Virus record (IMG/VR): IMGVR_UViG_3300032083_000683
Coordinates: 6,409-70,408 of that record
Length of the DNA stretch: 64,000 bases
Origin: a virus
Strand: one strand, 5' to 3'
The notes below the pieces were generated by a model. It worked only from the letters and a program-made list of their open reading frames with translations, did no database searches and was not told the DNA's origin. Position numbers and translations under genes: made by a program. Shown in pieces: positions 11,434 through 52,344 of this stretch. Each line of letters starts with the position of its first letter. Positions within the stretch are counted from its first letter, which is position 1.

Positions 11434-11455
11434 TTAACTTTTACCATCTCTTTCT

Positions 11456-12082
11456 TTATTGTTTTCCTTTTACATGATTTATAAAACCTTTTGTATCATT
11501 CAACGCATAACTTAAAATTTGATTAACTTGCAAATGATTAAACCAGCCTGTTGTAATATATTTGTCCTGTGTTGGTGATATGACACCACGATGTGTATGA
11601 GTAAAATCTGTGGGCCATATTAAAGTCCTACCTTTTACTGGTTTAATTTTTATATTCTGATAATAAAATTCTGTTTCTCCACCATCATCTACATCATTTA
11701 AATAAGTCATCCATACTAATGCTCTTTGAGGAGGATTACTTGAAGTTCTTTCATTGTGCCATTCAAAAAATCCCTCATTAGGAGCATAGTGTTGTATATT
11801 AAATCCCTCAAGCATTTCTAACCCAAAAAAACCACAGGAATATTTTTCAGTATATATTTCAGCAAGACTAAACAAATATTTCAAATATTTTTGTATTAAA
11901 GGATTATTTGTGTATGGTGGAATTGTTAAATCTGTGGAAACTTTTGCAACATTTTTTGTTTTTATACCAGTGCTACCTTTTGTTTGATGCTCTTCATTAC
12001 TTTTAAAATATTCTAAAAGTTCATCACAAATATACAAATCTTTATCATCAAGCTGTGCTTGTAATATAAAGTTTTCACTCAT
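11456..12082 (-). CDS. 2OG-Fe(II) oxygenase
   Basis: WHNER...WMTYLNDV..GGET.F...THTHRG...K; start moved to MSENF (12082) because it has an RBS and a promoter lies at 12111-12139. Confidence 0.85.
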   Translation of the reverse strand: MSENFILQAQLDDKDLYICDELLEYFKSNEEHQTKGSTGIKTKNVAKVSTDLTIPPYTNNPLIQKYLKYLFSLAEIYTEKYSCGFFGLEMLEGFNIQHYAPNEGFFEWHNERTSSNPPQRALVWMTYLNDVDDGGETEFYYQNIKIKPVKGRTLIWPTDFTHTHRGVISPTQDKYITTGWFNHLQVNQILSYALNDTKGFINHVKGKQ

Positions 12083-12110
12083 AAAATAGTCCTTTTTTAA
12101 AATTACAACT

Positions 12111-12139
12111 ATTCTACACAATTAAAGCAGTAATGTCAA
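12111..12139 (-). promoter_or_regulatory. sigma70 promoter
   Basis: TTGACA-N17-TAGAAT. Confidence 0.65.
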
Positions 12140-12149
12140 GTCTTATCAA

Positions 12150-12758
12150 TTATTTCCACTTTGCTTGATTAAGACTAATATAATGTTTATAATCTCTTTC
12201 AGTATCATTTGTATCATAAAAATTAAACCAACCAGTAACAATATATTTGTGTTGCGTTGGTGATGTGATGCCACGATGTAAATGTGTAAAGTCTGTAGGC
12301 CATATTACACATTTACCTTTTACTGGTTTAACTTTTAATTTTTGGTAAAAAAATTCTGTTTCTCCACCATCGTCTACATCGTTGAGATATGTCATCCATA
12401 CTAATCCACGCTGCCATGATTGAGTTGTTGTTCTCTCACAGTGCCAAGCAAAATAACCCTCATTTGGTGCGTAGTGTTGTATATTAAATGATTCTTTTAG
12501 TCCTATTTTAATCCTACCTTTAAGACTGTATTTCTCAAGATATTCAATTAATTTTCCTGATAATTGTTGCACATATTTTTGAATAGTTGGGTGCTGTGTC
12601 CAAGCAACTATAACATCAGTAGATTTTTTAATTTCAGCATCAGTACCATCAGAGGTTAAACCTCTCATTTTTTCATATACATTGTTTTTATGATATTCAA
12701 TTAATTCATCACAAACAGATACATCTTTTAACATAGTTTCATATATAAAATTTTCCAT
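12150..12758 (-). CDS. 2OG-Fe(II) oxygenase (paralog of 11456-12082)
   Basis: WHCER...WMTYLNDVDDGGETEF...THLHRG. Confidence 0.85.
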   Translation of the reverse strand: MENFIYETMLKDVSVCDELIEYHKNNVYEKMRGLTSDGTDAEIKKSTDVIVAWTQHPTIQKYVQQLSGKLIEYLEKYSLKGRIKIGLKESFNIQHYAPNEGYFAWHCERTTTQSWQRGLVWMTYLNDVDDGGETEFFYQKLKVKPVKGKCVIWPTDFTHLHRGITSPTQHKYIVTGWFNFYDTNDTERDYKHYISLNQAKWK

Positions 12759-33641: not shown

Positions 33642-34178
33642 TTATTTAACTTTTCTACCACTATCAAAGTAATATTTTTGATTTTTTCCACGACTTAGAA
33701 CATAGTGAAAAAACGCTTGACTATAATAGTTTCCATTATATAAATCTCTACCATGTGTTATTTCTGCTCCAAGATATAAAACAGCATCGCCACTTTCTAA
33801 ATCAATTGATTTTTTGTTTCCCTCTTTATCATACAAATAAAAAGGCCAGTTTTTATCTCCATCTAAATGTAGTGTTAAAGATATTTCACAAGCTAATCTG
33901 TCTCTATGTGGTATTAAAACAGAATTTTTTAAATAAACTCTAGCATAATTGTATGTAGGTAAAACTGTTTCTCCAATTAATTCTGTAACCTCATTTGTTT
34001 TTTCACATAGTAACTCTAAAAATGGTAGATAGTTGTAATAACAATAAGAGTTTTCAGCCTGTGGATCTCCTGTTAAATTATTTTTTTTACTAAAGTCATA
34101 AAATTCATTGTGTAAAGATTTAGCTCTTTTTTTATCAATGAAGTTTTTAATACACAAATAACCATTATCTACTTTCAT
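33642..34178 (-). CDS. 2OG-Fe(II) oxygenase
   Basis: PTY.YARVY...L.PHRDR.ACEIS.TL...GDA.LY.G...HGR...Q.FFHY. Confidence 0.85.
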   Translation of the reverse strand: MKVDNGYLCIKNFIDKKRAKSLHNEFYDFSKKNNLTGDPQAENSYCYYNYLPFLELLCEKTNEVTELIGETVLPTYNYARVYLKNSVLIPHRDRLACEISLTLHLDGDKNWPFYLYDKEGNKKSIDLESGDAVLYLGAEITHGRDLYNGNYYSQAFFHYVLSRGKNQKYYFDSGRKVK

Positions 34179-34183
34179 AATAT

Positions 34184-34753
34184 TTAATCAAACCATTTGT
34201 CTTTAGAATGATGTAACCAAGTTACAACAGCATACCTAACTCCATTTGTAACAGGCAATACTTTGTGAGGATATAACCGATTAGATGGAAACATACAAAT
34301 TTGTCCAGCTTTTAAATTTATTTTTTCCTCATACTTAATTGCATTTGTATAATCATCTCTAAAAAAGATTAGCTCTCCACCCTCGTAATCTTCATTTAAA
34401 ACAATAGATACAGATAAAAGTCTATTAAATTCACCTACATCAGTATGTAATTTATATTCTTGTCCTTTTTCATATCTCATTAAACCTAATGCTTCCACCT
34501 GAGAACAACTATTCTCATAATTTTGACATTTTTTTACATATTCAAAATAAGATTCTTTAATGGTGTGGATTAAAATTCTGTGATACCTAGAATTAAGTAA
34601 AGATAATTGTGAGCAAGTGCGATAATCACTTGATCCAGTGCCTGTCCATGACTGTTCCCATTTTCTTGAATATTGAGATTCTTTTATGATATTATTGCAC
34701 ACATTAGGAGTCAAAGCATCCATTACATGGATGTAGTCTTTTAATTTATCCAT
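34184..34753 (-). CDS. 2OG-Fe(II) oxygenase (prolyl-hydroxylase-like)
   Basis: LHTD...LNEDYEGGEL...FPSN..YPHKV.PVT.GVRY..VTW. Confidence 0.85.
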   Translation of the reverse strand: MDKLKDYIHVMDALTPNVCNNIIKESQYSRKWEQSWTGTGSSDYRTCSQLSLLNSRYHRILIHTIKESYFEYVKKCQNYENSCSQVEALGLMRYEKGQEYKLHTDVGEFNRLLSVSIVLNEDYEGGELIFFRDDYTNAIKYEEKINLKAGQICMFPSNRLYPHKVLPVTNGVRYAVVTWLHHSKDKWFD

Positions 34754-37044: not shown

Positions 37045-38181
37045 TTATCCTAATGCTATTGCAAGAGCAGTTGCTTCATCTCCAATATCACTTGTCAATG
37101 CAACTGTGCCAGTTGAAGTTGGAAGTGTTAGTGTGCCTGTATTTGATATTGAAGAAATTATAGGACTTGTTAATGTTTTATTTGTAAGTGTTTGTGATAC
37201 ATCTGTTCCAACTAATGTTGTAGTTGCAGCTGGTAGTGTTATTGTTTTGTTACCATCAAATTCTGAGTGAGCAGGTGCTTGTATTTCAGCGTAATGTGCA
37301 TTTGCACTCTCACAATAAAATCTTACAACTGATTGAGCTCCACTATTTTTAACATTAATAACACCTGATTCAATCTCTACACCATTACTACCATCAACTT
37401 GAAAAACACCAGTTCCATCTAACGCAACTGCAACATTACCATTAGCTGCATCTGTAATTGTGATTGAGCTAGAGTTTGTTCCTGAATTTGTATTAAGAGT
37501 TAAATCACCAGTTCCATTTGTTGTGATTGTTGCATTTGCATTACTATCACCAACAATTACTGTGTCTGCACTTAATGATACATCACCATTTCCGTTTGGT
37601 GTAATTGATATATTTCCATCTGCACCATCAGGTATAACTATAGAACCAGAGTTTGTTCCTGAATTTGTATTAAGAGTTAAATCACCAGTTCCATTTGTTG
37701 TAATAGTAACATCTTCGTTACTACTTCCTAACTGAACTGTATCTGTTTGTAATGTAACATTACCAGTTCCATTTGGAATAATATCTATGTCTGCGTCTGA
37801 TGTAGATACAATATCATTTCCATTAATATCTAAATCACCACCTAATTGTGGAGTAGTATCACCTACTACATCTGTAGTAACTGTTCCATCAGATGTGACT
37901 ACTATTGTTCCAGTTGAATTTGGAAGTGATATAGTTCTATCAGCAGTTGGATCTACAACTGTTAGAGTAGTTTCAAATGCGTCATCAGTTGCACCCTCAA
38001 AAACAATTTTACCATCTTCTAAAATATTTAATGTTACAACATCACTACTTGTTGTAACAGTAGAAGTAAAAGTTTGTGTTCCAGATTCTAATCCACCAAC
38101 ATCAGTAACAAGATTATTAAATTGTAATCTAAACTGTTCTAGTGTGCTTGAGGTTGTAATTTCTGATGCTGTTATTGCCAT
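37045..38181 (-). CDS. fibre-like virion protein with internal repeats
   Basis: FEGAT.D.FETTL...DPTADRTI.LP, DTTPQLGGDLD.NG, repeated I.PNGTG, ends ALAIALG. Confidence 0.75.
   Translation of the reverse strand: MAITASEITTSSTLEQFRLQFNNLVTDVGGLESGTQTFTSTVTTSSDVVTLNILEDGKIVFEGATDDAFETTLTVVDPTADRTISLPNSTGTIVVTSDGTVTTDVVGDTTPQLGGDLDINGNDIVSTSDADIDIIPNGTGNVTLQTDTVQLGSSNEDVTITTNGTGDLTLNTNSGTNSGSIVIPDGADGNISITPNGNGDVSLSADTVIVGDSNANATITTNGTGDLTLNTNSGTNSSSITITDAANGNVAVALDGTGVFQVDGSNGVEIESGVINVKNSGAQSVVRFYCESANAHYAEIQAPAHSEFDGNKTITLPAATTTLVGTDVSQTLTNKTLTSPIISSISNTGTLTLPTSTGTVALTSDIGDEATALAIALG
37471..37701. repeat. perfect 54-bp direct repeat, 177-bp period
   Basis: AGAGTTTGTTCCTGAATTTGTATTAAGAGTTAAATCACCAGTTCCATTTGTTGT at 37471-37524 and 37648-37701. 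Confidence 0.9.
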
Positions 38182-38408
38182 TAGTTTTTATCCAGTAAAG
38201 TTTTTAACATTGATTTAATTTCGTGCATTTCACATTTAATGTTATTTATCTCTCTTGATGCGTTTCTTATTTCATCTCTTTGTCTTTGTGCATCAGCAGC
38301 TCTTCTTTTTGCCATCTGATACGCAGTTTTATCAGTATTAACAATTGCGTTAGTTTTTGTATCTCTAACTAAATTACTATAACCTTCAACTTTTAAATAT
38401 TCACTCAT
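38181..38408 (-). CDS. conserved small protein downstream of the VrlC-like gene
   Basis: KVEG.SNLVRD..TNAIVN.D...EI..IK....EIKSML; start MSEYL. Confidence 0.7.
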   Translation of the reverse strand: MSEYLKVEGYSNLVRDTKTNAIVNTDKTAYQMAKRRAADAQRQRDEIRNASREINNIKCEMHEIKSMLKTLLDKN

Positions 38409-38409
38409 A

Positions 38410-41400
38410 CTATGTTGCCAATGCAATTGCTCTTAAATCTTTAATTCTTGGTGGATTAGCTGCATCTGTTCCTTGCATAACAATCTTAATTTGAAAAGAT
38501 ATGAACTCATCAAGTGCATCACCAATACCATCATCTTTAATCCCAGCAGAGAATGAATACTCTTGGAAATCATCCTTACCTAAAGAATTTGGTGGAACTG
38601 TGTCTGCAAGTCCAGTATCATTAAAGAATGTATATCCTAATTCATCAAGACTAGATGTATCATCAGTTCTTAATATTTTGAACAATACTTTTATCTCCGA
38701 AGTATTTACTTTATTTGCAGAGAAAAACACTCTTAATGCAGTAGCAGGATTTTCTAGCTGAACTGATTTTGTTATATAAATTGCAGAATTATTATCACCA
38801 TCAGGCTCGGTAGACGGAGCATAATCTGAGGTAGGATAAACATCTGATGAACTATCTATGTTATCTAATCTATTTGCAACTAAAACAGTAGATGCTCTAT
38901 CTAAATCAATTACTGGTGAAACATTAGAGTTTGTAGTATTAAGTGTAAGTATAGTTTCTAGCGACTTAACCGAACTCATTTCATTTGCCTCATTAATATT
39001 TGATGCAACCATTTTACTTATATCATGTTCAAAGTTTTCACCAATCGGTACAAAAGTATTAGTAGTTTCTTTTGTAAATGAAGTTTCTGTTCCAGATGGA
39101 CTTGTTGCAGTTGTTCCTTTTATAGCTGCAGTTATAACAGTATCCTCAACTTCCATAGTATTTAAAACAGTTTTAGTAAGCTCATATCTATAATTTTCAG
39201 ATGCATAAACATTTATTCCACCGACTTCTGTATCAGTAGATGCACCAGTTACTGATGCAGATGTTGATAATGCAATTGTATATGAATCCATCTGTATGTT
39301 TGCAATAGCAGTATGAGTTTTATTAATCTCTGTAAGTGGAACACTATTAATCATATATAACTCAATTGTTGCATCATCTGAGTGTGCAACAGCTGTTGAG
39401 CCACCTTGCCCTCTGGTAATACTTGATAATGTTGTTCCAGATATTGTTCCAGACATTATTTCGTTACTAATTTTAATATGAACTGTTCCTGAACTTGGAA
39501 AATTAGTTGATGATGTTAGAGTTAAAGTTGTTGCAGTATCAGTTATTGCACCATCTAATGTTGTTGATATTCCAGATGTAACACCAGTAATTGTTACATT
39601 ATTAGATGTGCTGTACATTCCATGATCTCTATGCTTTACTTTTGCAACAGCAGAACTATTAGTTAAAATAATTGGATTTGAAAGTAATCTTGCACCATAA
39701 ACAGTTGAACCAATTTCATTTGTAACTGCCTGTCCAATAATATCATTTTGTAATGTGACTGTTCCAGGCGTTGTTGAGAAATTAGCTGCATGTAAAGTAA
39801 ACTTCATGTCTTGAGATTGAACTGCATCCCAAGTTGTATTATTCTGTGATTTAAACAATGAACCTAAATGTGGTTGTGTTGATATTAAACGATTAGAGCC
39901 AGACACATCTTTTTCACCCATTTGTGCAATCCACAATTTGTAATCTAAACTATTTGACATTACAACAAAACAATATTCTGTTCCCTCTTGTATATAAACT
40001 GGAGAATCAAAAGTAAATGTGGTTACAGCAAGTCCATTGTCTGGATCTAAAGTAACATCTGATGGCTCTAAAACTTTTCTACCAAATGGTAACAGTTTAG
40101 GGCCTGGATAACCATTGATAACATTTCTTACTTCTACCCAAACTGGTAAATCGTTATCTTTTTCAGAGAAAAATAAATCTAGTTTTGTTAAGAAAGAGCC
40201 ACCTCTTTTATATGTGATAAATGTTTGTGCAAGTGGATCACCACCTTTATTGTGTACAACAATAAATTCATCATGCTCTTTCATTTTAACCATGTAAGTA
40301 TGATTACCAGTTAAAACAAAGTTATATAATTGTAAATCTCTTTTATCTTCTAGGTACTCTATGGAAGTAACTTCAATAGTTTTATCTCCCTCACCAATTA
40401 ACATATCACCAATTTCTAAAGTTTTTAACTCTATTTTATTTCTATCTAAAACACCTTTATGAATAATTTTAGACTTTTCAGCATTTGGTGCTTTCCACCC
40501 ATCTGTTGTTAAAAACATATGGTCTTCAGATGCATCATATCCACCATTATTTAAACTTACCATTCTTAAAGGAGTTTCTATTGCAATATCGTCATCACCT
40601 AAAAGTGGCCTATGGAATTGTAAAACTTCATTAATCATTCCATCTTGTCCAACAAGTTTATCACCTATTTCTACATCCTCAATATTCTTTTCAATTCCAC
40701 CCTCTAGTAAAACTTTTGTTTCACCTCTAAAGCATCTATTATGAACTAGCCAACCATTTGCATAATATGTTTTATCCCCATCAAGAGAAAAATTGTAAAC
40801 TGGTGTATCACTATCAACATCTTTTGTTTGAATAGAATTAACAACCACAGAATTACCATCGTGAGTTACAATTTCATCACCAAGTTTAAACTCCGTTGTA
40901 TTAAGTTCTTTATACCATGGCTTATCATTTGCCATTTCTGGATTAACAACTTTCCACCCATTGTTTGTCATTATAGGGTGGTCTTCTGTAAAGAAAAATT
41001 CACCATCATTAATAGATACTAATTTTCTTCCATCAGCAATTGCATGCTGTAAATGTATTACTGTATTATAAGAACCTTTTGAATTTAAAACTCTATCACC
41101 AACAACAATATGTTCAATATCTTTATAATCACCATTTTCAAGTAACACTTTTGTTCCAGCAATAAAACAAATTGATGCAGGCCTATTTTCTCTAATTGTA
41201 CTTGTTGATGTAAATTTACTTGTTGTTTGGTTTACTGATGTTTGAACAACTCTCGCATTTCTAGTTGAGATAATTGTTTCTTGCTCAGTTTCTATTACAC
41301 CCTTTGCAGTATATATTTCTTGTCCGGCTGTTAAAGGTAGTGTTGACCTATCGTCAGTTGAGCTTGATGTTAATCTAAATTCTACATCACCTGATTTAAA

Positions 41401-44400
41401 TTTAGGCACAGCTTGTTGCCCTGCAAATCTATATTCTGGTATTCTAAATGTAAACTCTACTTTACCAGCACCATTTGTAACTAATGCACTACCCTCAACT
41501 GGATTATTACTATCAGAAAATTCTGATGAAGATGGAGTAATGAACTGACTAACAGCTGTTCTATCAAAGTATGCATAAAGTCTAGTTCCTGGCCTAAAAC
41601 ATTCACCAGTTATAGTAATAGTTCTTGGGCGAACAAATGGAATTAATGCTCTTGATATAATTCTTTTACCTTGAGATTCATGCTCAACATGTTCAACAAC
41701 TGATGTTCTTACACCAGTTCTTTTTAAATCTGTTCTTGATGTTGTAGTCGTTCTAGTGCCTGATCGCACACTTGGAACTTGTTGACCCCAACGACCAGTT
41801 GTTGTAGTTCTTACACTTGTTCTTTCAGTTTTTGTGCTAACAACACCAGACCATTGTGTTTCCCAATTGTTCCAAACTGTTCCTAAAGCTCCAGAGTTTT
41901 TTAGTGCATTTTTAACGCTGTCAAAGTTACCCTCACGATTAATTATAAGTGCTGGTGCTTCTTCGGTTTCAAACCATTCATCACCACTTGGTGATAGTGT
42001 TATTTTACCAACCCATTCTTGTATCAAATAAGTTTGAACATTTTCAACTCTTGTTGCATACGGCTGTTTAATTAATTCCTCATGCGTGTAAGGTAAAGTC
42101 AATAAATCACCAGTTTTTTGATAACCAGCAGATGCTCTTGCAGTGTCTGTAGTTGCAAGCTCAGTAAGTGAAGAATTTCTCATTACACAAATTGGACGAG
42201 CTTCATTCTCCTCCATATCAATTGCAATTTTATAATCCTTATTTAAAGTATCACCAACTTTATGCCCAGAAAAATTATCTACAATGAAACCAGATTTAAA
42301 TCTGTCTAATCCATTTGCATCTTGAATCTGGAATGATTCTGCATCTCTTTCTAATAAATTAAGTGCAGTATAAAATTCTAAATTTTCTATTCTTTCTTGT
42401 AATCTACCAATATCTCTCATGGTAAATCTTTGTGTTTTATACCTTTGTATTTTCATTCCATTTGCAACTTCTGTAAATGCTGGAATGTAAATAGTTGCAA
42501 GTTTCATTGCATTGTCTATATCTTTTGGCTCTGTTGGATCTTCAGCAGATACACCCTCTACTACTTTAAATTCACCATCTGGTAGTAAAAATACTGATGC
42601 AAATTTATTAAGAAAAAATTCAAAATCATTTGTCATTGCAGCACCAGGCTGTGGTGTATCAACGACAACTGCACCAGTTGAATCAAATGTTCTATTTGTG
42701 TGATTAAATGAATTTCCTGTGATTTCATCAACTGCTGTAATTACAGTTGACGCACCAGTTACATTTGAAACAGTAGGCCTAAAGTCTACACTATTTCTAA
42801 GTTCAAATGAACCTGATGGCTCTGGATCGTCTGGGTCAATTTTTGTCGCACTATAGTCTGGTATATCTGCATAATTCATTTGCCCAGAAACAGAGGAATA
42901 AGAATCAACAGAGAAAAAGTCTCCAGCACCATGCTCAAAAAAGTCATAAACAATTAACAGTCTACCTCTTGGAGCTGCAACGCCAGGTTTTCTAACTAAT
43001 CTTGAAATATCGTAATAAGTATCTCTTTGTCCATTGTCTAATGTAAAGTTACTTGTAATCACTTTACTACCAGCAGTAACACCACCAGTATCAATTGTTG
43101 CAGTTGCACCTGAGTGAACACCAGTAATTGTTTCACCAGCAATGAAATCAGTCGCACCAAATCCACCAATTAAAACATATTGCAATGGACTTGCAGTTGT
43201 GATTAATCTACCTTTAGCACCAGATGTTCCACCAGTAATTCTTTCACCTCTTTCAAATACACCAGTTGCAGAAGATATAGTAAGTGTTGGTGCAGTTGCG
43301 TCTGTAGAAGTATCCTCTGAATCAAATACTGCATTGAGTCTGAATACATCTGCACGGCCAAAAGAAATAGTTTTATCTGCTGGCCTTGTTCCAAATGCAT
43401 CTGTAGCACCAGTAGTAACTTTCAATTGCTTCATCAATTGAGTAGTTTTAATCTTTGGTTGCTGTGCAGATTTTGTAAGTGTTGCTAAAACTTTAACTTT
43501 TGCACCAGATCCAAATACAGTATTATCTGTAATTGTAAGTGTTTGTGTTCCAGTTCCAGAAGTATTACCACTTGCAGAAACTATATCACCAGCTGCACCA
43601 CTACCAGTTCCAGCTGTAATAATTGAAACAAGGTAATCTTTTTCTGCAAAAGTAACAAATGTTTCATTTGTTCCAGCACTTAAAGTTACAACACCAGATG
43701 CGTTTGATGTTGCGACAAATTGTGTTCTTGCATTAAATGATGTATCACTTGCACCACTGTTTGATTCTGTTTTAAGTGTCTTAATTGGTTCTTTAGGTAA
43801 TTTGAATACTGCAATAGATTTTTCTGAATCTCTTACTTTAGCTTCTTCTTGAACTTCTAGTCCAACTGCAAAACCTTGAGCATCTGTATTACCTGTTTCA
43901 AAAACTATACGATCAACTGGGTCAGCATCATTATTAAATCCACCACCTCTAAACACTGCATCATCATCTGTTCTTTCTAAAAGAATGTCAGCTGAAAAGT
44001 TTGTAGTAGTTGAACCACCTTGTATTTGTCTTGCTTCTCTTAATTGATTTGTTTCTATGGAAACAATTGTTAAATCTGTATCAGTAGCATCTTCTACAAT
44101 TAAATCTGTTTCAGATGAATCTGATGCTTTGATTTTTTCTCCAGCTGAAAATTTACCTACAACTTGAGTTAATATAACTTTATCTCCAGATGTTCCAGTT
44201 GGGAATACAAATCCTGTCGCACCAGAAGTGTTGCCTGTAACTTGAACACCACCATTAGAATGATTTGCAAGTAAAGTTGCACTTGGAGTTCCAGACATTG
44301 TTAATGTCGTAAACATTTGAGTATCAAATACTGACAACTTATAAACTGATTCTGTATTTGAACTTGTTGCGCCTGGAGTTTGTCCTTGCTCAAATTCCAT

Positions 44401-45744
44401 GAAACGAGCTCGTGTGACACCAATTTGCCTACCAGCACTAGAACCTCTAGTTGTTGTTCTTTCTGTAAATAAGCCTATTTGACTATAGGGTGTTGTTTCA
44501 CCTGAAATATTAGATATATCTGGAGTACCAAATACATTTGTAAGTCTAAGTGTATTACCAACTTCTAAGTTTGTAACACCAGCATTAATTGTTTGAAAAT
44601 CTCTTGCTTTATCTATGTCTATGAGTTTTGTTGCAATTTGCTCAACTTCGTAACCTTTTACATATGCTTTTCCTGGCGATACTGAAAGTGTAAATAAAGA
44701 TTCTGACGCAGTATTACCATCATTAGTTGTTGCACCAGCAGTATAAGTTCCAGTAAAATCTTGCCCCTTAACTGTTGTGTCAACACTTTCTTTTGCATCA
44801 AAAATAAAAGGAACTACTGTATAATCTCCAGATTCATCAAATGTTCTTCTTGCAAGAGTATCACCTAAAACTGAATATTCAGTTGCTTGAACATGAGAAA
44901 CTATAACTCCGTTATCTATTCTCATTAACTCTATAAAATTTGTATCAGCGGTAGAGTCAAAGTCTAACTTTGAAAGTGTTAATGATACTTTTAATCTATG
45001 AGCTCCTTTAGCTGCATAGTTTGATGAGCCAGTTGCATTGTCTGTAAGAGTTGCATCTATCTCTGGTGTAATAAGTTCCTCTGTAACTGTAAAACCAATT
45101 CTTGCAGTTTCTGTTGTTGAATTAACACTCAATGGTAAAGTTTGCTCTGCACATTGTACAAACTGCCCTCGTATAAAATAAATTCCTTTGTCTACTTTTA
45201 CTGATGAACCAGTCTGTGATGCGTTAGATGAAAAAGTTGTTCCAGATGCAACACCAGAACCATATGTCGTTGTGTGTGTTACACTTGCATCAGCAGTAAT
45301 ATTTTCACTATTTGAAAAGACTCCAGAAGTTAAATCTGTTCCAGTCTGTATATAATAGATGTATAAAATTGGTTGTGTTGTAGTAGTTGCAGCTTGAAAT
45401 CCAATTACCTTTGCTTTAACACCAGAAGTTACGCCTGTAATTATTACTGGTGTAGTTGCATTATAAAATGATTCTGGTTTAATTGTTTCACCAGCAAATG
45501 TTGACTCTAATTGTAATGTATCAAATCTATCAGAGTAGGATACTTGGCCAGGTATGACCATTGCACCCTCTTTAAACATATGATTACCATGTCTTTCAAC
45601 TTGATTTTGAAGTATGGATTGAAGTTGTGTTAATTCTCTTGCCTGAACTGCATATCCAGGCCTAAAAAGAATACGATGAAATAAATCGTCTTGGTCAAAA
45701 TCGTCATAATAAGGTACTACATTTAAATCGGTAATTTGTGGCAT
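38410..45744 (-). CDS. VrlC-like (DUF4815-type) giant baseplate/virion protein containing two tandem Hint domains
   Basis: PYYDDF...FRPG..VQARELTQLQS, GAHRLK, RRTFDESGDY, RFTMRDIG, DPLAQTF, C-terminal PRIKDLRAIAL; follows gp8. Confidence 0.88.
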   Translation of the reverse strand: MPQITDLNVVPYYDDFDQDDLFHRILFRPGYAVQARELTQLQSILQNQVERHGNHMFKEGAMVIPGQVSYSDRFDTLQLESTFAGETIKPESFYNATTPVIITGVTSGVKAKVIGFQAATTTTQPILYIYYIQTGTDLTSGVFSNSENITADASVTHTTTYGSGVASGTTFSSNASQTGSSVKVDKGIYFIRGQFVQCAEQTLPLSVNSTTETARIGFTVTEELITPEIDATLTDNATGSSNYAAKGAHRLKVSLTLSKLDFDSTADTNFIELMRIDNGVIVSHVQATEYSVLGDTLARRTFDESGDYTVVPFIFDAKESVDTTVKGQDFTGTYTAGATTNDGNTASESLFTLSVSPGKAYVKGYEVEQIATKLIDIDKARDFQTINAGVTNLEVGNTLRLTNVFGTPDISNISGETTPYSQIGLFTERTTTRGSSAGRQIGVTRARFMEFEQGQTPGATSSNTESVYKLSVFDTQMFTTLTMSGTPSATLLANHSNGGVQVTGNTSGATGFVFPTGTSGDKVILTQVVGKFSAGEKIKASDSSETDLIVEDATDTDLTIVSIETNQLREARQIQGGSTTTNFSADILLERTDDDAVFRGGGFNNDADPVDRIVFETGNTDAQGFAVGLEVQEEAKVRDSEKSIAVFKLPKEPIKTLKTESNSGASDTSFNARTQFVATSNASGVVTLSAGTNETFVTFAEKDYLVSIITAGTGSGAAGDIVSASGNTSGTGTQTLTITDNTVFGSGAKVKVLATLTKSAQQPKIKTTQLMKQLKVTTGATDAFGTRPADKTISFGRADVFRLNAVFDSEDTSTDATAPTLTISSATGVFERGERITGGTSGAKGRLITTASPLQYVLIGGFGATDFIAGETITGVHSGATATIDTGGVTAGSKVITSNFTLDNGQRDTYYDISRLVRKPGVAAPRGRLLIVYDFFEHGAGDFFSVDSYSSVSGQMNYADIPDYSATKIDPDDPEPSGSFELRNSVDFRPTVSNVTGASTVITAVDEITGNSFNHTNRTFDSTGAVVVDTPQPGAAMTNDFEFFLNKFASVFLLPDGEFKVVEGVSAEDPTEPKDIDNAMKLATIYIPAFTEVANGMKIQRYKTQRFTMRDIGRLQERIENLEFYTALNLLERDAESFQIQDANGLDRFKSGFIVDNFSGHKVGDTLNKDYKIAIDMEENEARPICVMRNSSLTELATTDTARASAGYQKTGDLLTLPYTHEELIKQPYATRVENVQTYLIQEWVGKITLSPSGDEWFETEEAPALIINREGNFDSVKNALKNSGALGTVWNNWETQWSGVVSTKTERTSVRTTTTGRWGQQVPSVRSGTRTTTTSRTDLKRTGVRTSVVEHVEHESQGKRIISRALIPFVRPRTITITGECFRPGTRLYAYFDRTAVSQFITPSSSEFSDSNNPVEGSALVTNGAGKVEFTFRIPEYRFAGQQAVPKFKSGDVEFRLTSSSTDDRSTLPLTAGQEIYTAKGVIETEQETIISTRNARVVQTSVNQTTSKFTSTSTIRENRPASICFIAGTKVLLENGDYKDIEHIVVGDRVLNSKGSYNTVIHLQHAIADGRKLVSINDGEFFFTEDHPIMTNNGWKVVNPEMANDKPWYKELNTTEFKLGDEIVTHDGNSVVVNSIQTKDVDSDTPVYNFSLDGDKTYYANGWLVHNRCFRGETKVLLEGGIEKNIEDVEIGDKLVGQDGMINEVLQFHRPLLGDDDIAIETPLRMVSLNNGGYDASEDHMFLTTDGWKAPNAEKSKIIHKGVLDRNKIELKTLEIGDMLIGEGDKTIEVTSIEYLEDKRDLQLYNFVLTGNHTYMVKMKEHDEFIVVHNKGGDPLAQTFITYKRGGSFLTKLDLFFSEKDNDLPVWVEVRNVINGYPGPKLLPFGRKVLEPSDVTLDPDNGLAVTTFTFDSPVYIQEGTEYCFVVMSNSLDYKLWIAQMGEKDVSGSNRLISTQPHLGSLFKSQNNTTWDAVQSQDMKFTLHAANFSTTPGTVTLQNDIIGQAVTNEIGSTVYGARLLSNPIILTNSSAVAKVKHRDHGMYSTSNNVTITGVTSGISTTLDGAITDTATTLTLTSSTNFPSSGTVHIKISNEIMSGTISGTTLSSITRGQGGSTAVAHSDDATIELYMINSVPLTEINKTHTAIANIQMDSYTIALSTSASVTGASTDTEVGGINVYASENYRYELTKTVLNTMEVEDTVITAAIKGTTATSPSGTETSFTKETTNTFVPIGENFEHDISKMVASNINEANEMSSVKSLETILTLNTTNSNVSPVIDLDRASTVLVANRLDNIDSSSDVYPTSDYAPSTEPDGDNNSAIYITKSVQLENPATALRVFFSANKVNTSEIKVLFKILRTDDTSSLDELGYTFFNDTGLADTVPPNSLGKDDFQEYSFSAGIKDDGIGDALDEFISFQIKIVMQGTDAANPPRIKDLRAIALAT
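40249..40734 (-). other. Hint domain 2 (162 aa, CFRGET...VVHN)
   Basis: N-terminal Cys block A, SEDH block B, LYNF block F, terminal HN followed by K. Confidence 0.85.
40738..41169 (-). other. Hint domain 1 (144 aa, CFIAGT...LVHN)
   Basis: CFIAGTKV block A, TEDHP block B, VYNF...TYYANG.LVHN blocks F/G, followed by R. Confidence 0.9.
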
Positions 45745-45746
45745 AT

Positions 45747-47246
45747 TTAAAACTCTATAATTAATTTAATATCTTCGGTTTGATCCGAATCTCGTTGAAT
45801 TGGTTTTCTATTTTCTAAGTAGACAATGTTTCCACTATCTGGTTGTAACTCTGGATTTGCATATCCTGATGTTAAGGTTAATGTGTTATTATTTGCAAGT
45901 GTTACTGTCTCTGTTGTTCCTGATGTTGTTCCAGTTGCACCAGATGTTCCACCAGTTATTTGGTTTGCTCCACTAAATACAGTCAGTCCACTATTTGTAG
46001 CACTAGTTCCAAATCCAGAAAATCTCTCTTGTTGAAAATATAAAAGTTTGAGTGTGCTATCCCACTCTACCACTTTACCTACTGCTCCTGTAGTTGCTTG
46101 AGTAATTTGTTCGTCTGCCTCAAATGTTCCACTGTTGGTATCAAGTTTAACAACAAAGGTTTGTCTTGCAGTTGTAGAAGATGCAATGGTAGAAGTTCCA
46201 TATGTTGTTGGGTCTACCACAAGTCCTACTTGCCTGAAATCATTTTGAGTCGTTACATCGTCACCCTCTGCTTGTGTAAGTGTTACTGCACTCATTACAA
46301 AGTGTCCACCTAACTCCCCAATCGCATCATTACCATGCCCACCCTTTGGACTGATGACGACATTAATTGCACCACCAGTTCCACTACCTAAAGTAGATGA
46401 TGTTGACAAAGAAGCATCAGAAAAAATAAAATCATCACCAAGATTGACTGTTCCAAAAGTATATCCAGCTCCACCAGCGTGAATTGTTGTATCTGTTCCA
46501 GCAGTCAATCCAAAAGATGCAATTGCACCACTTGAAACAGTAATTCTAACTATTGCACCAGATGATGTTCCTTGACTTGTTCCATCACCAAACACAGCTG
46601 CATAGTATGTTCCGTCTGTATATCCAGAGCCAGCAGTTACAACTAATGATTCTATTTTACCATCTGTTGCAGCTGCAGCTACAGTTGTATCATTAGAAAC
46701 AGGCATATAATCAGTGGTTAAATATTTTGCAGCTTCAGATGCAGTTATGGAATACATATATTTAAGAACATAACCACCTGAAGCAAATGGTGAGGTTGAT
46801 TCTGATGTCGGTTCAGCACCAGAAAATGCAGCTCCACCATTATTATCTAAAACTTTGTAAACTCTATGGTCAGAAGTCATAAAGAAAAATGTTGAATCAT
46901 ATAAATTTGATGCACCAGAAGATGAGGTGTTTGAAGAACTTATGTTATGCTCATACATGTCATAAATTGTTCCGTTTACCCAATTTCTTCTTGGTAATGC
47001 ATAGGTAATATCTGTTGATGCGATTTTTTTTGCAGCTAACATAGAATCCCATGCATAAAATTCTGTTTCTCCTACTGCATCAGCAGGAGTTGGTGGAGAA
47101 CTGTCACTACCAGTTGTAGTTGCAGTTGTAAATGCAGTTGCTTTTCCTATGAAAAGATAATATGTTGATGCAGATGCTTCTGTGAAAGATTCAAAGAATT
47201 GATCTGCGTTGTGTTGCCTAAATTTTTCTGTTATAATTGCCGACAT
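45747..47246 (-). CDS. gp8: baseplate wedge subunit gp8
   Basis: MSAIITEKFR, RVYKVLDN, GYVLKYMY, P.GGHG, Y.ENR.PI.R...QTEDIKLIIEF. Confidence 0.9.
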   Translation of the reverse strand: MSAIITEKFRQHNADQFFESFTEASASTYYLFIGKATAFTTATTTGSDSSPPTPADAVGETEFYAWDSMLAAKKIASTDITYALPRRNWVNGTIYDMYEHNISSSNTSSSGASNLYDSTFFFMTSDHRVYKVLDNNGGAAFSGAEPTSESTSPFASGGYVLKYMYSITASEAAKYLTTDYMPVSNDTTVAAAATDGKIESLVVTAGSGYTDGTYYAAVFGDGTSQGTSSGAIVRITVSSGAIASFGLTAGTDTTIHAGGAGYTFGTVNLGDDFIFSDASLSTSSTLGSGTGGAINVVISPKGGHGNDAIGELGGHFVMSAVTLTQAEGDDVTTQNDFRQVGLVVDPTTYGTSTIASSTTARQTFVVKLDTNSGTFEADEQITQATTGAVGKVVEWDSTLKLLYFQQERFSGFGTSATNSGLTVFSGANQITGGTSGATGTTSGTTETVTLANNNTLTLTSGYANPELQPDSGNIVYLENRKPIQRDSDQTEDIKLIIEF

Positions 47247-47280: not shown

Positions 47281-50200
47281 TTATACTGTTATTCCTGTTG
47301 CACCCTCTAAATCAAAATTATCTCCAGCATTTGATGATGTGCTGTCTGTTCCGTTTAATACTAAATAACCATGAGAAGTTACACCATCTATATTGTTTAT
47401 AGTTTCGTCCTCTAACGCAATATCACCAGTTGTCCTCACAACAATTTCTGATGCTTGAACTATTGGTTGAGCCCCTACTGGATTTACACTACTATTTAGT
47501 GTCCAATTCTCAATAGGTATCTGTCCTTCTGAAATAATTAAATTTGTTGACTCAAGTAATAATTCTGATGCAGTATCATTTCGTAATGAATCTTCTAGTA
47601 ACACTTTATCGCCTGCATTAGGAATTGGATCATCAATACCCGTTCCGTTTAATATAATTACATCATCACCACTTGTTCCTTGTATTTCTAGTTTAATACC
47701 AGAATCATCTGTAAGATCTTCTTGTGATTCTAAATTAAGAAGTGAACTGTTTTCACCCTCTAAAAGTATTCTTTCAACAACTGAATTAGAAGAATATTCT
47801 TCTTCAATTAAACTTCCAGATAGTTCTAAAGTAAACCTATTTCTTTTTGTAGTTTCTTGCAACAAATGATTACCAGCATTTGATGATGTACTGTCTGTTC
47901 CATCTAAAATAAGTTGTCCAAAATCCTCAAGAAGAACTCCAGTATTTTCAATTGCATTTGCATTATTTTGCTCTACTGATTTACTAAGATTATCATTAAT
48001 AATAATTTTACTCTTATTAAGAATATCGTTAAAAGTTAAACTATTTACATCACTGAGTTTAACTGAAGTGTCATCATGGTCATCTTCTAATAATATTTTT
48101 TCATGCTCATTTATATAATACCCAACTGGAAATGCCCATGTATCTGATTCAGCCATGAGAACAGAATCATCACCACCTTGCTCTAATAGTATTCTATCTT
48201 TTAAGCCTCTTGTTACAAAAGTAGAATCCTCTTGTAATATTCTACTACCATCTTCCATTAAAATATTACCGCCATCATCTGTACCAGATCCATCTGTTGC
48301 ATTTAATACAACATGGTCTCTATCCTCATCACCCTCAAGTAATATTGGAACATTAGGGTCATTAAATGGAAGTGTTCCATCTATGACTAAGTTACCAGAC
48401 TCAAAAGAACCCTCAGTTGAGTTTTCTAATTGTAGTGCAGATTGCCCACTTCCAAAAGGATTTTGTGCAAGTTGTAGTAAAAGATTTCTTGCAGCTCTAA
48501 CTGTAGGCCTTGTAGATATATCTACCTTTGTTCTTTTAACTAAAACTCTCTCTGCTTTACCACTCGGTGCATGAGAAGTTTCTGCCATGAGCCTACCACC
48601 ACCATCATCATTGGTATCTCTTTCTGGATTACCCTCAAATAAAATATTGTCTCCAGCATTACTTGATGAAATATCTGTTCCATCAAGAATAATCGTATCA
48701 TCTCTATCACCTCTATCACCATCTGGTGCAACTTCTAGTCTACTTTTAATAACTTGGTCAAATATAGTTTCAAATGTAGATGCAAGTATTGGTGAGAATC
48801 TATCATCACCAGTAAATCCTGATAATGTGGCACCAGCATTTGTTACTGCAACTGATATTGCAGATGCAATTGACACTTTACCAAATGGTCTAAATCCAGC
48901 TGGGTGAACTGCTTTCTTGAGTTCATTTACATAAGTTCCAAATGCTTCACCAACTTGAACCTCATATGAATAATCTTGATAGTAATAAGAGTCTTGAACA
49001 CGAATTAAATCTTCACCTATTAAACTTTTTATACCACTATAAGAACCCTCAGAAGTTGATGTTTGTCCTATTTGACTTGATGCAGTTGCAATGTCTGCTT
49101 TGATGATTGTTCCTGTTGCACCAGTGTTGTCAGTTATAACAACATTATCTTTACTAAAATCTATTGCATCTTCATTAATAATATTGTCACCAGCATCACT
49201 TGATGAACTATCAGTTCCATCAAGAAGTATATCTCCAGTTCCAGTTTCATCTTCTCCTAGTAAATTACTATTTGCATCAGTAGAGTCTGAATCAGTTCCA
49301 TTTAAAATTAATCTGTTTCCAGCTTCTTCTATTGCAACAACTTCACCAGCTGCTGTTCCGTCAGAATCAATTCCATCAAGGAGTAAAAATTGCCCTGATA
49401 AATTTTCTTGATACCTATCTAATTTAATTACACCTACTCCTGACTCTGGTGCAATAAAACTTGAATCACTAACTTCTAAAATAAATCTATCACCAGTATC
49501 AGAAAAACCAGTAAGTGTAACTCTTGGTTCATTTTCCTCCATGACTAAAATGGAATCTTGTCCATCATTAGAACCAACTTCTAATAAAATATTATCATTT
49601 TGGTCAACACCACCAGATGCAGTTTGATTAAATCCTATTCTTGATTCTCTTGTGACTGCAAGACTTTCTTGCATTAAGAAACCAAGTCCTGTATCAGTTC
49701 CGTCCTCTAATAAAAGTCCACGAATAGCAGTTTGACTTGCATCTAATAAAACATTTTCACTCTCATCTTCTATGGTGGTTTGTGGATCTGGTGTATATGC
49801 AAGTCCACCCATACCAGAGTGATTTACACAATAATAATATAAGTCTGGAGCTCCAGATGCAACAACTATTTGAATATATGCACCTGTTGTTCCAATATCA
49901 ATATAAGATGCAGAAGTTGTAACACCATCAGTATATTCAGATCCACCACCATGTGTTCCGTTTGGTGTTATTGAAAATTTAAGTTGATGATTTTTAGATG
50001 ATACTGCGTTGTACAACGAACTATCTGATAAGTCAAAGTAATAAGTGTTACCCTCTGTTAATCTAAGTGTTGGTTGTGGAACACTATCAATTGCAAAAAT
50101 GTTAGCAGTGTCTGATGCATTTCTAACAACAGTAACTTTTTTAGTAATTGTTCTTGTGGATGGTGTTGTAATTGATGTTCCATCTAATAAAACATCTTCA

Positions 50201-52344
50201 CCATCATCAAAGTCTTGTGTGTCCTCTAATAAAATACCACCAGCAATATCACCAGTATTTGTTCCAACCTCTAAATCTATACCCTCATTAAAAGTTGCAG
50301 TTGATTCTTGCTCAACACGAATTACATTTTCAAATTCTGTATCAAGAACATTTGTATTTGAATCAAAACTTTTAACTGTTCCCACATGAGATGTAAGAGT
50401 ATTTCCATTTGTAAAAGTTCCAGATACATCTTTAAGAACAAAGTGAGCTCTAGGCACAACTGTGGGTGCATTATTAGTAAAATTAAAACCAGAATCACTT
50501 ACTTTTAAAGATTTTATCCCACCAATATCACTCGTTGTTGCGAGAACTGATGCACCAGTTCCAGATGTAGTTGTAATAGTGACTGTTGGTAATTTTGTAT
50601 ATCCATCACCACCATTTGCAACATGAACTTTTTGTATAGCACCAGCCTCTGCTGTGCTAAATGTGTCAGACTCTAAAACAATTTGATCTGTTTCTGTTGT
50701 GTGAGTATCCTCTGCTTCAAAAACAGTATCAGTAAGAATTTGGTGATTTGCATTTGCACCAAGTCCATCTGTTCCATCTAAAATTAAATTATTAAGAACA
50801 TTACCACGAACATATATTTTTGCACCATCTGCTGGTGCAGTGGTAAATGTTAAAGTTGTTCCACTTGCAGTCCAATTAGTTGGTGAAGTTAAAGTATCAT
50901 CTGTTTCTGGAAAATTAACATCATCAATGGTAACAATTATTGTATCTGTTGTTGTATTTAAATTTGTTAAAGTAAATACTGTTGTTGTTCCATCACCAAT
51001 AAAATTATCATCTAATATATTTTCTAATTGAATATTAAATGATTCTAAATGTGTTTGAGTTCCACTTTCTAAAATTATACTATCAGATGTAAATGTAGGA
51101 TCATCAAGTGTTCCTGATTCTAATTGAATACCACCACCAACCATACTGACAAAACCAGATGCAGACTCAACTAAATTATCTGATGTGGATTCAGTAAATG
51201 TTAAAGTATCACCAACCTCATAACTTGTTCCAGCGTCATCAACTTTAACTTCACTTACTGAGCCACTATGAATTTCACTTACAAGAACATCACCAAATCC
51301 ATTTCCTAAACTTTCAACAACTGTTGGCTCATTCACACTATGAAGAATACCATCATTACCAACACTTGCAGATGAAATAATTGATGAAATTGTAAACTTA
51401 ACATTTAAATCTCTAGTAGAGGATAAACCACTTACAATTTCACCTTTAGAAAATGTTCCTGATACATTTTCAATTGTAAATTCTGTTATTGATTCAGTTC
51501 CTTGTTGAAACGATAAAGAGGAAACAACAGTTGCAGTTGCACCAGATGTTGCACCAGTAATAACTGCATCAATAACTTCAGCGCCAGATACTCCTGATGT
51601 ATTAGGAGTGACACGCATAGTTGTTGTTCTTCCCCAATTACCATCTGAAGTTCTTAAAACATTTTCCGTTGGATAAAATATTTCTGGCTGCTCTCCTACG
51701 AACAATCTCATAAACAGTTTATGACCCTCTGATGTTCCTTTAGCTGCATAGAGGTCTTTAATACTTTTTATGAGATTCCTCTTTGATACTCCTGATGCAA
51801 GAGTGTTTGGTATTGCGTTCATAAATGAGTTACGGAACTCATCTAAGAAATCATAGATTGTATTATCTGTGTTTGCGTATTCTAATAACTGCTGAATGTT
51901 TTGAACTGGATTTGCACGATACTGCTTTATTGCTCCAGTTGCACCAGATGTTGCACCAGTAATTGTTTCACCAGTAATAAATTTTTGCTGAGAGCTAATG
52001 TAAAGATAATTGTTTCTTAAATCTTGTAGTAATACTGTTGCAGTTGCACCAGATGTTGCACCAGTAACAGTTTCATTTTCAACAAAGTTTGAAGTAGAGC
52101 CTGCACCAGATTCAGTAACAACTCTGTCACCATCTGCATTTAAAATATAATTTGTTGTTGTAGTTTCTTGTATGATATAATCTATGTCTGGAGTATCTAA
52201 AGTTATTCTTCCAGCTTCAAGGTATTGATAATAGTGCTTAAGAAAACGAACAAAAACAGGGTGGTCTGATTGAACAAAATCAGGAACTTGGCCTTCTATT
52301 AAAGGTGAAACTTTTGTAACTAATTTAGAATCGTTTTTACTCAT
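47281..52344 (-). CDS. gp7: baseplate wedge initiator gp7-like, with long acidic repeat insertions
   Basis: Q.PDFV..DHP.FV.FLK.YY, IKDLY.AKGT..., QDSYYYQDYSYEV...VHPAGF..FG. Confidence 0.85.
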   Translation of the reverse strand: MSKNDSKLVTKVSPLIEGQVPDFVQSDHPVFVRFLKHYYQYLEAGRITLDTPDIDYIIQETTTTNYILNADGDRVVTESGAGSTSNFVENETVTGATSGATATVLLQDLRNNYLYISSQQKFITGETITGATSGATGAIKQYRANPVQNIQQLLEYANTDNTIYDFLDEFRNSFMNAIPNTLASGVSKRNLIKSIKDLYAAKGTSEGHKLFMRLFVGEQPEIFYPTENVLRTSDGNWGRTTTMRVTPNTSGVSGAEVIDAVITGATSGATATVVSSLSFQQGTESITEFTIENVSGTFSKGEIVSGLSSTRDLNVKFTISSIISSASVGNDGILHSVNEPTVVESLGNGFGDVLVSEIHSGSVSEVKVDDAGTSYEVGDTLTFTESTSDNLVESASGFVSMVGGGIQLESGTLDDPTFTSDSIILESGTQTHLESFNIQLENILDDNFIGDGTTTVFTLTNLNTTTDTIIVTIDDVNFPETDDTLTSPTNWTASGTTLTFTTAPADGAKIYVRGNVLNNLILDGTDGLGANANHQILTDTVFEAEDTHTTETDQIVLESDTFSTAEAGAIQKVHVANGGDGYTKLPTVTITTTSGTGASVLATTSDIGGIKSLKVSDSGFNFTNNAPTVVPRAHFVLKDVSGTFTNGNTLTSHVGTVKSFDSNTNVLDTEFENVIRVEQESTATFNEGIDLEVGTNTGDIAGGILLEDTQDFDDGEDVLLDGTSITTPSTRTITKKVTVVRNASDTANIFAIDSVPQPTLRLTEGNTYYFDLSDSSLYNAVSSKNHQLKFSITPNGTHGGGSEYTDGVTTSASYIDIGTTGAYIQIVVASGAPDLYYYCVNHSGMGGLAYTPDPQTTIEDESENVLLDASQTAIRGLLLEDGTDTGLGFLMQESLAVTRESRIGFNQTASGGVDQNDNILLEVGSNDGQDSILVMEENEPRVTLTGFSDTGDRFILEVSDSSFIAPESGVGVIKLDRYQENLSGQFLLLDGIDSDGTAAGEVVAIEEAGNRLILNGTDSDSTDANSNLLGEDETGTGDILLDGTDSSSSDAGDNIINEDAIDFSKDNVVITDNTGATGTIIKADIATASSQIGQTSTSEGSYSGIKSLIGEDLIRVQDSYYYQDYSYEVQVGEAFGTYVNELKKAVHPAGFRPFGKVSIASAISVAVTNAGATLSGFTGDDRFSPILASTFETIFDQVIKSRLEVAPDGDRGDRDDTIILDGTDISSSNAGDNILFEGNPERDTNDDGGGRLMAETSHAPSGKAERVLVKRTKVDISTRPTVRAARNLLLQLAQNPFGSGQSALQLENSTEGSFESGNLVIDGTLPFNDPNVPILLEGDEDRDHVVLNATDGSGTDDGGNILMEDGSRILQEDSTFVTRGLKDRILLEQGGDDSVLMAESDTWAFPVGYYINEHEKILLEDDHDDTSVKLSDVNSLTFNDILNKSKIIINDNLSKSVEQNNANAIENTGVLLEDFGQLILDGTDSTSSNAGNHLLQETTKRNRFTLELSGSLIEEEYSSNSVVERILLEGENSSLLNLESQEDLTDDSGIKLEIQGTSGDDVIILNGTGIDDPIPNAGDKVLLEDSLRNDTASELLLESTNLIISEGQIPIENWTLNSSVNPVGAQPIVQASEIVVRTTGDIALEDETINNIDGVTSHGYLVLNGTDSTSSNAGDNFDLEGATGITV

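Follow-up and report, generated by a model that had tools for sequence, protein, structure and literature searches.

What do two protein-splicing-type domains placed back to back do inside a phage baseplate protein, when neither is followed by the residue that canonical splicing uses? The question is raised by a 64,000-nucleotide stretch of viral DNA (IMG/VR record IMGVR_UViG_3300032083_000683, positions 6,409 to 70,408; hereafter the window, numbered from its first letter), which belongs to an uncultured marine T4-like myovirus. The longest open reading frame (ORF) of the window, 38410..45744 on the minus strand, translates without a stop into 2444 amino acids (aa) and encodes the precursor of a baseplate protein of the VrlC/DUF4815 type. 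Residues 1526-1669 and 1671-1832 of this protein are two complete, endonuclease-free Hint domains, separated by a single Arg. We lean towards an interpretation in which both domains excise themselves as bacterial intein-like (BIL) domains do, which would leave two chains, residues 1-1525 and 1833-2444, that stay associated in the baseplate through non-covalent contacts.

Unit 1 (residues 1526-1669, 144 aa, the "short" type; 40738..41169, minus strand) carries Cys1526, His1589 and Asn1669, and unit 2 (residues 1671-1832, 162 aa, the "long" type; 40249..40734, minus strand) carries Cys1671, His1742 and Asn1832. Between them, Arg1670 (40735..40737, minus strand) is at once the +1 residue of unit 1 and the -1 residue of unit 2. 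Mapping of residues to bases places C1526 at 41167-41169, N1669 at 40738-40740, R1670 at 40735-40737, C1671 at 40732-40734, N1832 at 40249-40251 and K1833 at 40246-40248. Cys1, the block-B motif (T/S)EDH, YNF...HTY and the terminal HN are kept in both units, with block B reading TEDH at 1586-1589 and SEDH at 1739-1742, and the terminal HN at 1668-1669 and 1831-1832. The two units are otherwise divergent, with 47 of 142 aligned residues identical (33%). Their +1 residues, R1670 and K1833, depart from the C, S or T that class-1 inteins have at this position. These results bear out the first-pass annotation of the locus, which had placed two endonuclease-free Hint domains with a single-Arg spacer just before GGDPLAQTF, named R and K as +1 residues and predicted a C-terminal fragment of 612 aa; its coordinates (40249-41169) and residue numbers proved exact.

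Domain searches agree on the fold and on its distance from ordinary inteins. Taken as one 307-aa segment, the pair exceeds the Pfam cut-offs (in brackets, bits) of Hom_end_hint with 72.6 (32.1), PT-HINT with 51 (27.7), Hint_2 with 39 (28.4), Hint with 37.5 (29.7) and Vint with 37.6 (27), and stays under that of Intein_splicing (12.5 vs 35.8 bits). Each single unit also passes the Hom_end_hint and PT-HINT cut-offs: unit 1 scores 36.3 and 28.7 bits, with 30.8 for Vint, and unit 2 scores 42.7 and 31 bits. Unit 1 further matches the NCBIfam model TIGR01443 (intein_Cterm) with 18.4 bits against a cut-off of 15.6, and a hidden Markov model (HMM) of the unit aligns over the full length of both, reaching 227 bits for unit 2. 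Pfam identified no endonuclease insert in either unit (144 and 162 aa), and the interval 40249-41169 contains no opposite-strand ORF of at least 70 aa. An AlphaFold2 (AF2) model of the pair has a predicted local distance difference test score (pLDDT) of 84.4 and a predicted template modelling score (pTM) of 0.53, with unit 1 as a beta-rich domain; pLDDT falls below 50 at model residues 155-158, the hinge at R1670, which is therefore predicted to be flexible. Foldseek returned 46 matches to this model at E<=1e-3, all of them Hint folds from BIL, intein, Hedgehog or Vint structures.

A tandem copy in a metagenomic contig may be suspected of being an assembly chimera, and this had been raised for the present pair. 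Sequence words sampled from 40100-41300 were all present in 18 runs of 6 studies, and contigs of 4 runs from 4 studies span 39800-41600 in one piece with zero differences, some of these runs possibly being the source sample. The same two-unit layout occurs in a protein from another contig (P0004; P numbers denote relatives from the protein search, L numbers IMG/VR stretches) that is 83% identical, its Hints being 89% (unit 1) and 78% (unit 2) and its flanks 83% and 87% identical to those of the window. With the caveat on the source sample, the runs and contigs covering the site together with P0004 rule out a chimera. The full source record (70,408 bases, estimated 39% complete) encodes no Hints beyond these two.

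Comparison with homologues locates the insertion precisely. The proteins of phages Melnitz, HTVC008M and Mosig align with the window protein on both flanks and have no insert, the gap ending 0-3 residues before DPLAQ (DPLAQTF lies at 40219-40239, minus strand). The closest relatives of the C-terminal part in IMG/VR comprise 19 loci; the site is visible in 18, all Hint-less, a sample that gives no measure of how often the site is occupied. These 18 VrlC ORFs carry Pro-, Gly- or Arg/Lys-rich linkers before DPLAQ. Because Melnitz, HTVC008M, Mosig and the 18 Hint-less ORFs all run through the site, the Hint insert is, as far as homologues can tell, dispensable. Class-1 inteins occupy conserved functional sites; the position found here, which lies 0-13 residues upstream of the conserved DPLAQTF, is instead a Pro/Gly/basic linker of variable sequence. 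In six of the Hint-less loci (L088-L091, L095 and L100) the linker consists of poly-Pro followed by Arg/Gly runs, often with K or C directly before DPLAQ. Such linkers look like the flanks of alleles that bear Hints (PPP...CC / Hint / K-DPLAQ), and the gain or loss of a Hint may have left them as its footprint. A megablast of window positions 38000-46000 against GenBank phage records gave no match.

The pair belongs to a much larger group. A search with residues 1500-1860 retrieved 48 proteins of 1344-4277 aa, several of which outscore the query itself because they hold more Hint units. The unit HMM recognized 136 full units in these proteins, with Cys1 in all 136 and the terminal HN in 135; position +1 holds K in 125 units, R in 10 and C in one, hence a basic residue in 135 of the 136. 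Neighbouring units are very often linked by a single K or R, and the longest arrays comprise six full units and, at their end, a divergent one. The layout had at first seemed unfamiliar, but it is not unique: tandem units separated by just one K or R turn up in numerous metagenomic proteins. A 14-unit profile run against 1.84 billion representative sequences produced 23,246 matches at E<=1e-3, 4,805 at <=1e-10 and 652 at <=1e-30. Among 144 further top representatives, 135 contain one full unit or more, and 53 of these 135 at least two; in 66 adjacent unit pairs the spacer is one residue in 12 and one to three residues in 30. The 201 units of this second set have Cys1 in 200 cases, HN in 194 and a basic +1 residue in 156 (K 139, R 17). 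Conservation of this kind indicates that the catalytic residues of the units are under selection, and by their sequences these Hints form a large, unnamed subfamily of the type "Cys1 ... His-Asn + Lys/Arg" (HN-K/R).

In IMG/VR, 284 stretches encode a relative of the Hint pair. We grouped the Hint-bearing ORFs with a full unit from the best 80 of these 284 loci, in which copy numbers are lower bounds on account of contig ends. Forty are continuous VrlC genes with the Hints 0-13 residues before DPLAQ: 28 have one unit, nine have two, one has three and two have four. Another 13 are N-terminal VrlC parts with no DPLAQ after the Hints, one is a C-terminal fragment, and the remaining 25 of the 79 ORFs carry the family in other proteins. 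Across uncultured viral contigs the VrlC site thus holds 0 to 4 Hint units; a comparison of homologues had been proposed to find 0, 1 or 2 there, and these states are extended by alleles with 3 or 4. Between the last unit and DPLAQ lies a spacer of 0 to 13 residues, which is a lone R in 8 of the 40 continuous ORFs, further spacers also beginning with R. Hosts of the family are VrlC, other large proteins of phage contigs and a 4119-aa protein (P0007) recorded at NCBI under the name Mucilaginibacter angelicae, which has laminin-B and laminin-G domains and five family units with 4-6-residue K-G/S spacers. With five units in this giant bacterial protein, the family is not confined to phages. In three loci (L006, L013 and L048) the VrlC frame breaks within or right after arrays of near-identical 162-aa units, reflecting either assembly errors in the repeats or real frameshifts.

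Array order follows a rule, with short units (~142-146 aa) first and 162-aa units after them. In a quick tree of 69 units, on which all clade statements are based, the 162-aa units form a single clade (29 rows, support of 99 in the Shimodaira-Hasegawa-like approximate likelihood ratio test, SH-aLRT), with unit 2 of the window among them. Unit 1 clusters with the first units of P0004, P0021, P0025, P0026, P0032 and P0033 and with the second unit of P0033. On this grouping, the short-then-long pair was inherited as such and is no recent duplication. Hint and host histories disagree in both directions: P0021 and P0026 share 49-57% identity with the window in their Hints and only 26-33% in the VrlC flanks, and L023 and L037, with flanks 50-54% identical, have a second unit of another type (41%). 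This disagreement suggests that the Hint cassette has been exchanged between VrlC genes.

Which known system do these units resemble most? Hint fold, N-terminal Cys nucleophile and the Thr-x-x-His pattern of block B place them in the HINT superfamily. Compared with solved structures, the 14-unit profile ranks the A-type BIL domain 2LWY of Clostridium thermocellum first (E 6.2e-15), followed by Tetrahymena BIL2 (2e-10) and the best intein (8.1e-9); by this ranking, made against solved structures and not against a curated BIL profile, the units stand nearer in sequence to BIL domains than they do to inteins or Hog domains. Foldseek with the AF2 pair puts BIL2 on top (E 4e-10, TM 0.75-0.79, template modelling score), with 2LWY at TM 0.80. 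The first-pass annotation had seen a BIL- or PT-HINT-like nature, with which these rankings and the PT-HINT score concur. As defined in three reviews, A-type BIL domains have a conserved C-terminal HN, no nucleophilic flank and a location in variable protein regions (PMC7765530, PMC5874633, PMC7664689). Both window units end in HN before a non-nucleophilic residue. They also lie in a variable region and are free of endonuclease, a likeness that is only partly comparable because the host VrlC is conserved in T4-like marine phages. With 2LWY they share Cys1, the C-terminal block YNF...HTY...LVHN with its final HN, the absence of C/S/T at +1 and of an endonuclease, and the variable region of the host protein. 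Unlike BIL domains, whose hosts are bacterial secreted proteins, the window Hints reside in a phage baseplate protein; their family almost always has Lys or Arg at +1, is arranged in ordered tandem arrays, often with a one-residue spacer, and recurs at an insertion hot spot.

Other relatives are further away. BIL2 of Tetrahymena thermophila BUBL1 (PDB 6TMM, 6Y75) likewise lacks canonical splicing and is placed between two domains. It is, however, only 19% identical to the window Hints and flanked by ubiquitin-like domains; according to its depositors, as given in PMC8616854, it makes an isopeptide bond from a lysine side chain to a C-terminus and couples one ubiquitin-like domain to further proteins, and no such conjugation is shown or implied for the window Hints. 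Pretoxin HINT domains (PF07591), whose cut-off the pair exceeds, are self-cleaving Hints of large extracellular or structural proteins, but no toxin follows the window Hints: the C-terminal part is a conserved baseplate domain and the neighbours are structural genes. Class-1 mini-inteins such as the cyanophage-like gp41-1 (PDB 6QAZ) share the fold (TM 0.81), Cys1, the block-B His, the terminal HN and the lack of an endonuclease, and differ in +1 residue, in site and in the Intein_splicing score. The R and K at +1 and the Intein_splicing score below cut-off rule out a canonical intein.

Nature has also divided the gene at this very site. In four loci (L069, L070, L073 and L077) the N-terminal part of VrlC leads into one complete Hint and a tail of ~86-97 aa, after which comes a stop; this tail belongs to the Peptidase_S74 chaperone domains (34 bits, cut-off 22). 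A 48-base spacer follows with TATAAATA, which we take to be the T4 late-promoter consensus, and then a 536-aa ORF that starts 8-9 residues before the equivalent of DPLAQTF; in L069 the gene pair spans 6335-12382. Peptidase_S74 is a Ser-Lys protease. As the intramolecular chaperone of tail spikes and fibres it is a C-terminal module that matures phage tail proteins and removes itself, much as is predicted for the Hints, and in split VrlC it stands directly after the Hint, but its fold and chemistry are unrelated and it is absent from the window. Two further loci (L050 and L067) end the N-terminal part with two Hints and a ~120-aa tail, a third (L055) with two Hints and a divergent terminal Hint without HN, and each of these three encodes the C half as a gene of its own (533-538 aa) that starts within a few bases of the N-half stop. 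The N-half gene of L009 ends in four Hints plus a divergent terminal Hint without HN.

Two of these terminal modules deserve a description of their own. The ~120-aa tail (L050:10436-10798, and L067) has a G-rich start, ...VICTALY / ICTEL, and no Pfam or PHROG match; the module stands behind Hint units in several unrelated ORFs, with a similar motif after the Hints in L054, L082 and L083. The divergent terminal Hint-like domain (L055:10436-11131, L009:10976-11647) starts with CF..., lacks the terminal His-Asn and has ~100 extra residues. It has the Hedgehog-like layout of "N-cleavage only" and closes VrlC N-half genes as well as P0002-type proteins.

Since these loci encode VrlC as two genes divided at the Hint site, its halves need not be joined, and separate chains work in several lineages. 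Judged by these natural splits, a break of the chain is tolerated exactly where the Hints are. The predicted products of the window protein correspond to the two halves. The N-terminal fragment or N-extein (residues 1-1525, ending ...RPASI; 41170..45744, minus strand) contains DUF4815 and can be aligned to the N-terminal portion of Hint-less homologues as far as the insertion point. The C-terminal fragment or C-extein (residues 1833-2444, starting K-GG-DPLAQTF; 38413..40248, minus strand) aligns from DPLAQTF onwards with Hint-less homologues, with the stand-alone C-half ORFs and with PDB 9EUF_0. Pfam detects no domain in the latter fragment, which matches residues 792-947 of 9EUF_0, a "DUF4815 domain-containing protein" of 1152 aa from the baseplate of Staphylococcus phage 812 with DPLAQSF at residue 792. 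Going by gene order, that chain may be the trimeric "tripod" protein of phage 812, an identity that the consulted text of the phage 812 paper does not state.

By analogy with the chemistry of the known family, processing would run as follows. After translation, the bonds before each Cys1 (I1525-C1526 and R1670-C1671) would shift to thioesters, and the last Asn of each unit (N1669 and N1832) would cyclize and cut the bond after itself. With no C, S or T at +1, the trans-esterification of inteins would not take place, so that both units would drop out and mainly two chains, 1-1525 and 1833-2444, would remain. These would stay together non-covalently in the baseplate, as two-gene relatives must build their VrlC, and a fraction might be re-ligated via the amine route described for BIL domains. 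Autoproteolysis into parts of ~1525 and ~612 aa, as first predicted, is the best-supported interpretation, and relatives that encode the parts as separate genes lend it comparative support. The accompanying idea of an undescribed system is not borne out: the proposed chemistry is that already described for A-type BIL domains, of which the locus would be a variant. A role in triggering, suggested alongside, found no support.

Several observations weigh against self-excision into two chains. In the Hint-less homologues and in the solved homologue of phage 812 the chain runs on unbroken at the site, and a re-ligated product would thus be functional too. Split genes retain Hints with nothing downstream to ligate, although loss would be expected if cutting were their sole role, which may point to some additional function or to selfish persistence. 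Positional orthology of the units is kept across lineages, which would be unexpected for a purely neutral passenger. A tblastn search of the Hint pair against 50,697 GenBank phage records found nothing at E<=1e-8, leaving this subfamily without a cultured phage in that set; of the four weak matches at E<=1e-3, three are to ordinary inteins, located in helicase and terminase genes, and the fourth is to a hypothetical protein. Continuity is also what BIL-type splicing predicts, in which the amine freed at +1 would attack the N-terminal thioester, unit by unit, and yield an unbroken VrlC that has gained one or two basic residues at the junction. In 5 of the 18 Hint-less ORFs DPLAQ is immediately preceded by K or R, as expected of such a product; moreover, A-type BILs are described as splicing in some cases by an alternative mechanism (PMC5874633), and 2LWY is said to support ligation without nucleophilic side chains, going by a title cited in PMC7664689. 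Yet the products of BIL domains, which lack a +1 nucleophile, are mainly cleaved according to two reviews (PMC7664689, PMC7765530), split VrlC genes make ligation unnecessary while keeping complete Hints without a C-extein, and a post-array spacer of 0-13 residues offers no conserved junction geometry. We therefore regard splicing as the regular outcome as rather unlikely.

Could the thioester instead serve another protein? The HN-K/R Hints might act as ATP-free thioester dispensers for covalent tail links, in which the thioester of the N part is passed to Lys+1, or to a lysine of another baseplate or fibre protein, with tandem units relaying or multiplying the reactive group, much as Tetrahymena BIL2 is reported to do for ubiquitin-like domains; the baseplate would then be stapled by isopeptide bonds. 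The best structural match being BIL2, the nearly invariant basic +1 residue and the Hints kept at the end of N-half genes beside an already self-cleaving S74 module are in line with this. However, the idea is entirely inferential, and the many last units followed by Arg, like unit 1 of the window, disfavour the Lys+1 side chain as a universal nucleophile, so that we hold the proposal to be distinctly improbable. If it is true, phage baseplates would in general mature with the help of Hint chemistry, a step so far undescribed, and the retention of Hints in split VrlC genes would be explained. Least probable is that the Hints remain part of the mature protein and act there as spacer beads. The AF2 model does present two independent, well-folded beta domains on a flexible hinge, and arrays of six or more units look like repeat spacers, but the near-absolute conservation of Cys1, block-B His and terminal HN at ~33-50% overall identity is hard to explain without catalysis. 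A different kind of alternative concerns origin and is compatible with self-excision: the Hints may be a selfish in-frame passenger, an endonuclease-free mobile cassette that spreads by recombination at the DPLAQTF flank, removes itself and brings the phage no benefit. Their patchy distribution in 0-4 copies, the disagreement between Hint and host histories and their presence in unrelated proteins speak for it; the lack of a homing endonuclease, the conserved unit positions and the retention in split genes beside other maturation modules speak against it, and we consider it possible, though doubtful. Self-excision into two chains remains the interpretation that we favour.

The identity of the host protein is supported from several sides. 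DUF4815 occupies residues 1024-1262 (E 2.9e-56, 191.4 bits, Pfam) and phrog_358 matches the 2444-aa protein with 1766.8 bits. Its closest GenBank relative is the homologue of Methylophilales phage Melnitz (46% identity), and proteins annotated as "VrlC protein" in Pelagibacter phages and cyanomyophages are 35-40% identical. VrlC is described in two papers as a baseplate component of phages with two-layered baseplates (PMC7029224, PMC4621102). Directly upstream lies a gp8-like baseplate wedge subunit (45747..47246, minus strand; phrog_438, E 2.4e-125), and the order wedge gene, then VrlC, is also found in Melnitz, HTVC008M and Mosig; DUF4815, the part with DPLAQ(T/S)F and this wedge neighbour together assign the gene to VrlC/DUF4815. 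A 1687-aa structural protein (47281-52344, minus strand), with mixed PHROG matches to head closure Hc2, baseplate wedge and virion structural protein, separates the gp8-like gene from a gp6-like wedge subunit (54029-55954; phrog_219). Further neighbours are genes for a small virion protein and tail-fibre-like proteins by PHROG. Inside the tail-fibre and host-recognition region downstream of VrlC, two small genes (33642-34753, minus strand) carry the PHROG labels 2OG-Fe(II) oxygenase and "ferrochelatase".

The chemistry predicted for the locus is that of A-type BIL domains; what appears new, on the genes compared, is the occurrence of BIL-type Hints that form ordered arrays of tandem units, conserve a basic residue at +1 and occupy a hot spot in phage baseplate proteins. 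A literature search that did not reach most subscription journals turned up no account of such domains, be they Hint, BIL or intein-like, in VrlC, DUF4815, baseplate or tail proteins, nor of tandem Hints. Self-processing by Hints is thus not described there for phage baseplate proteins, yet the module is common (284 IMG/VR stretches; 652 protein clusters at E<=1e-30). The conserved basic +1 residue is not considered in the available portions of the BIL and intein reviews, and its role could be probed. As compact tandem units that are predicted to cleave themselves, these domains are possible parts for protein engineering. The VrlC site offers a natural series at a single position, with 0-4 units or a split gene, for asking what BIL-type domains do. 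For the annotation of such phages it carries a warning: the 2444-aa gene product probably does not correspond to the protein of the mature virion.

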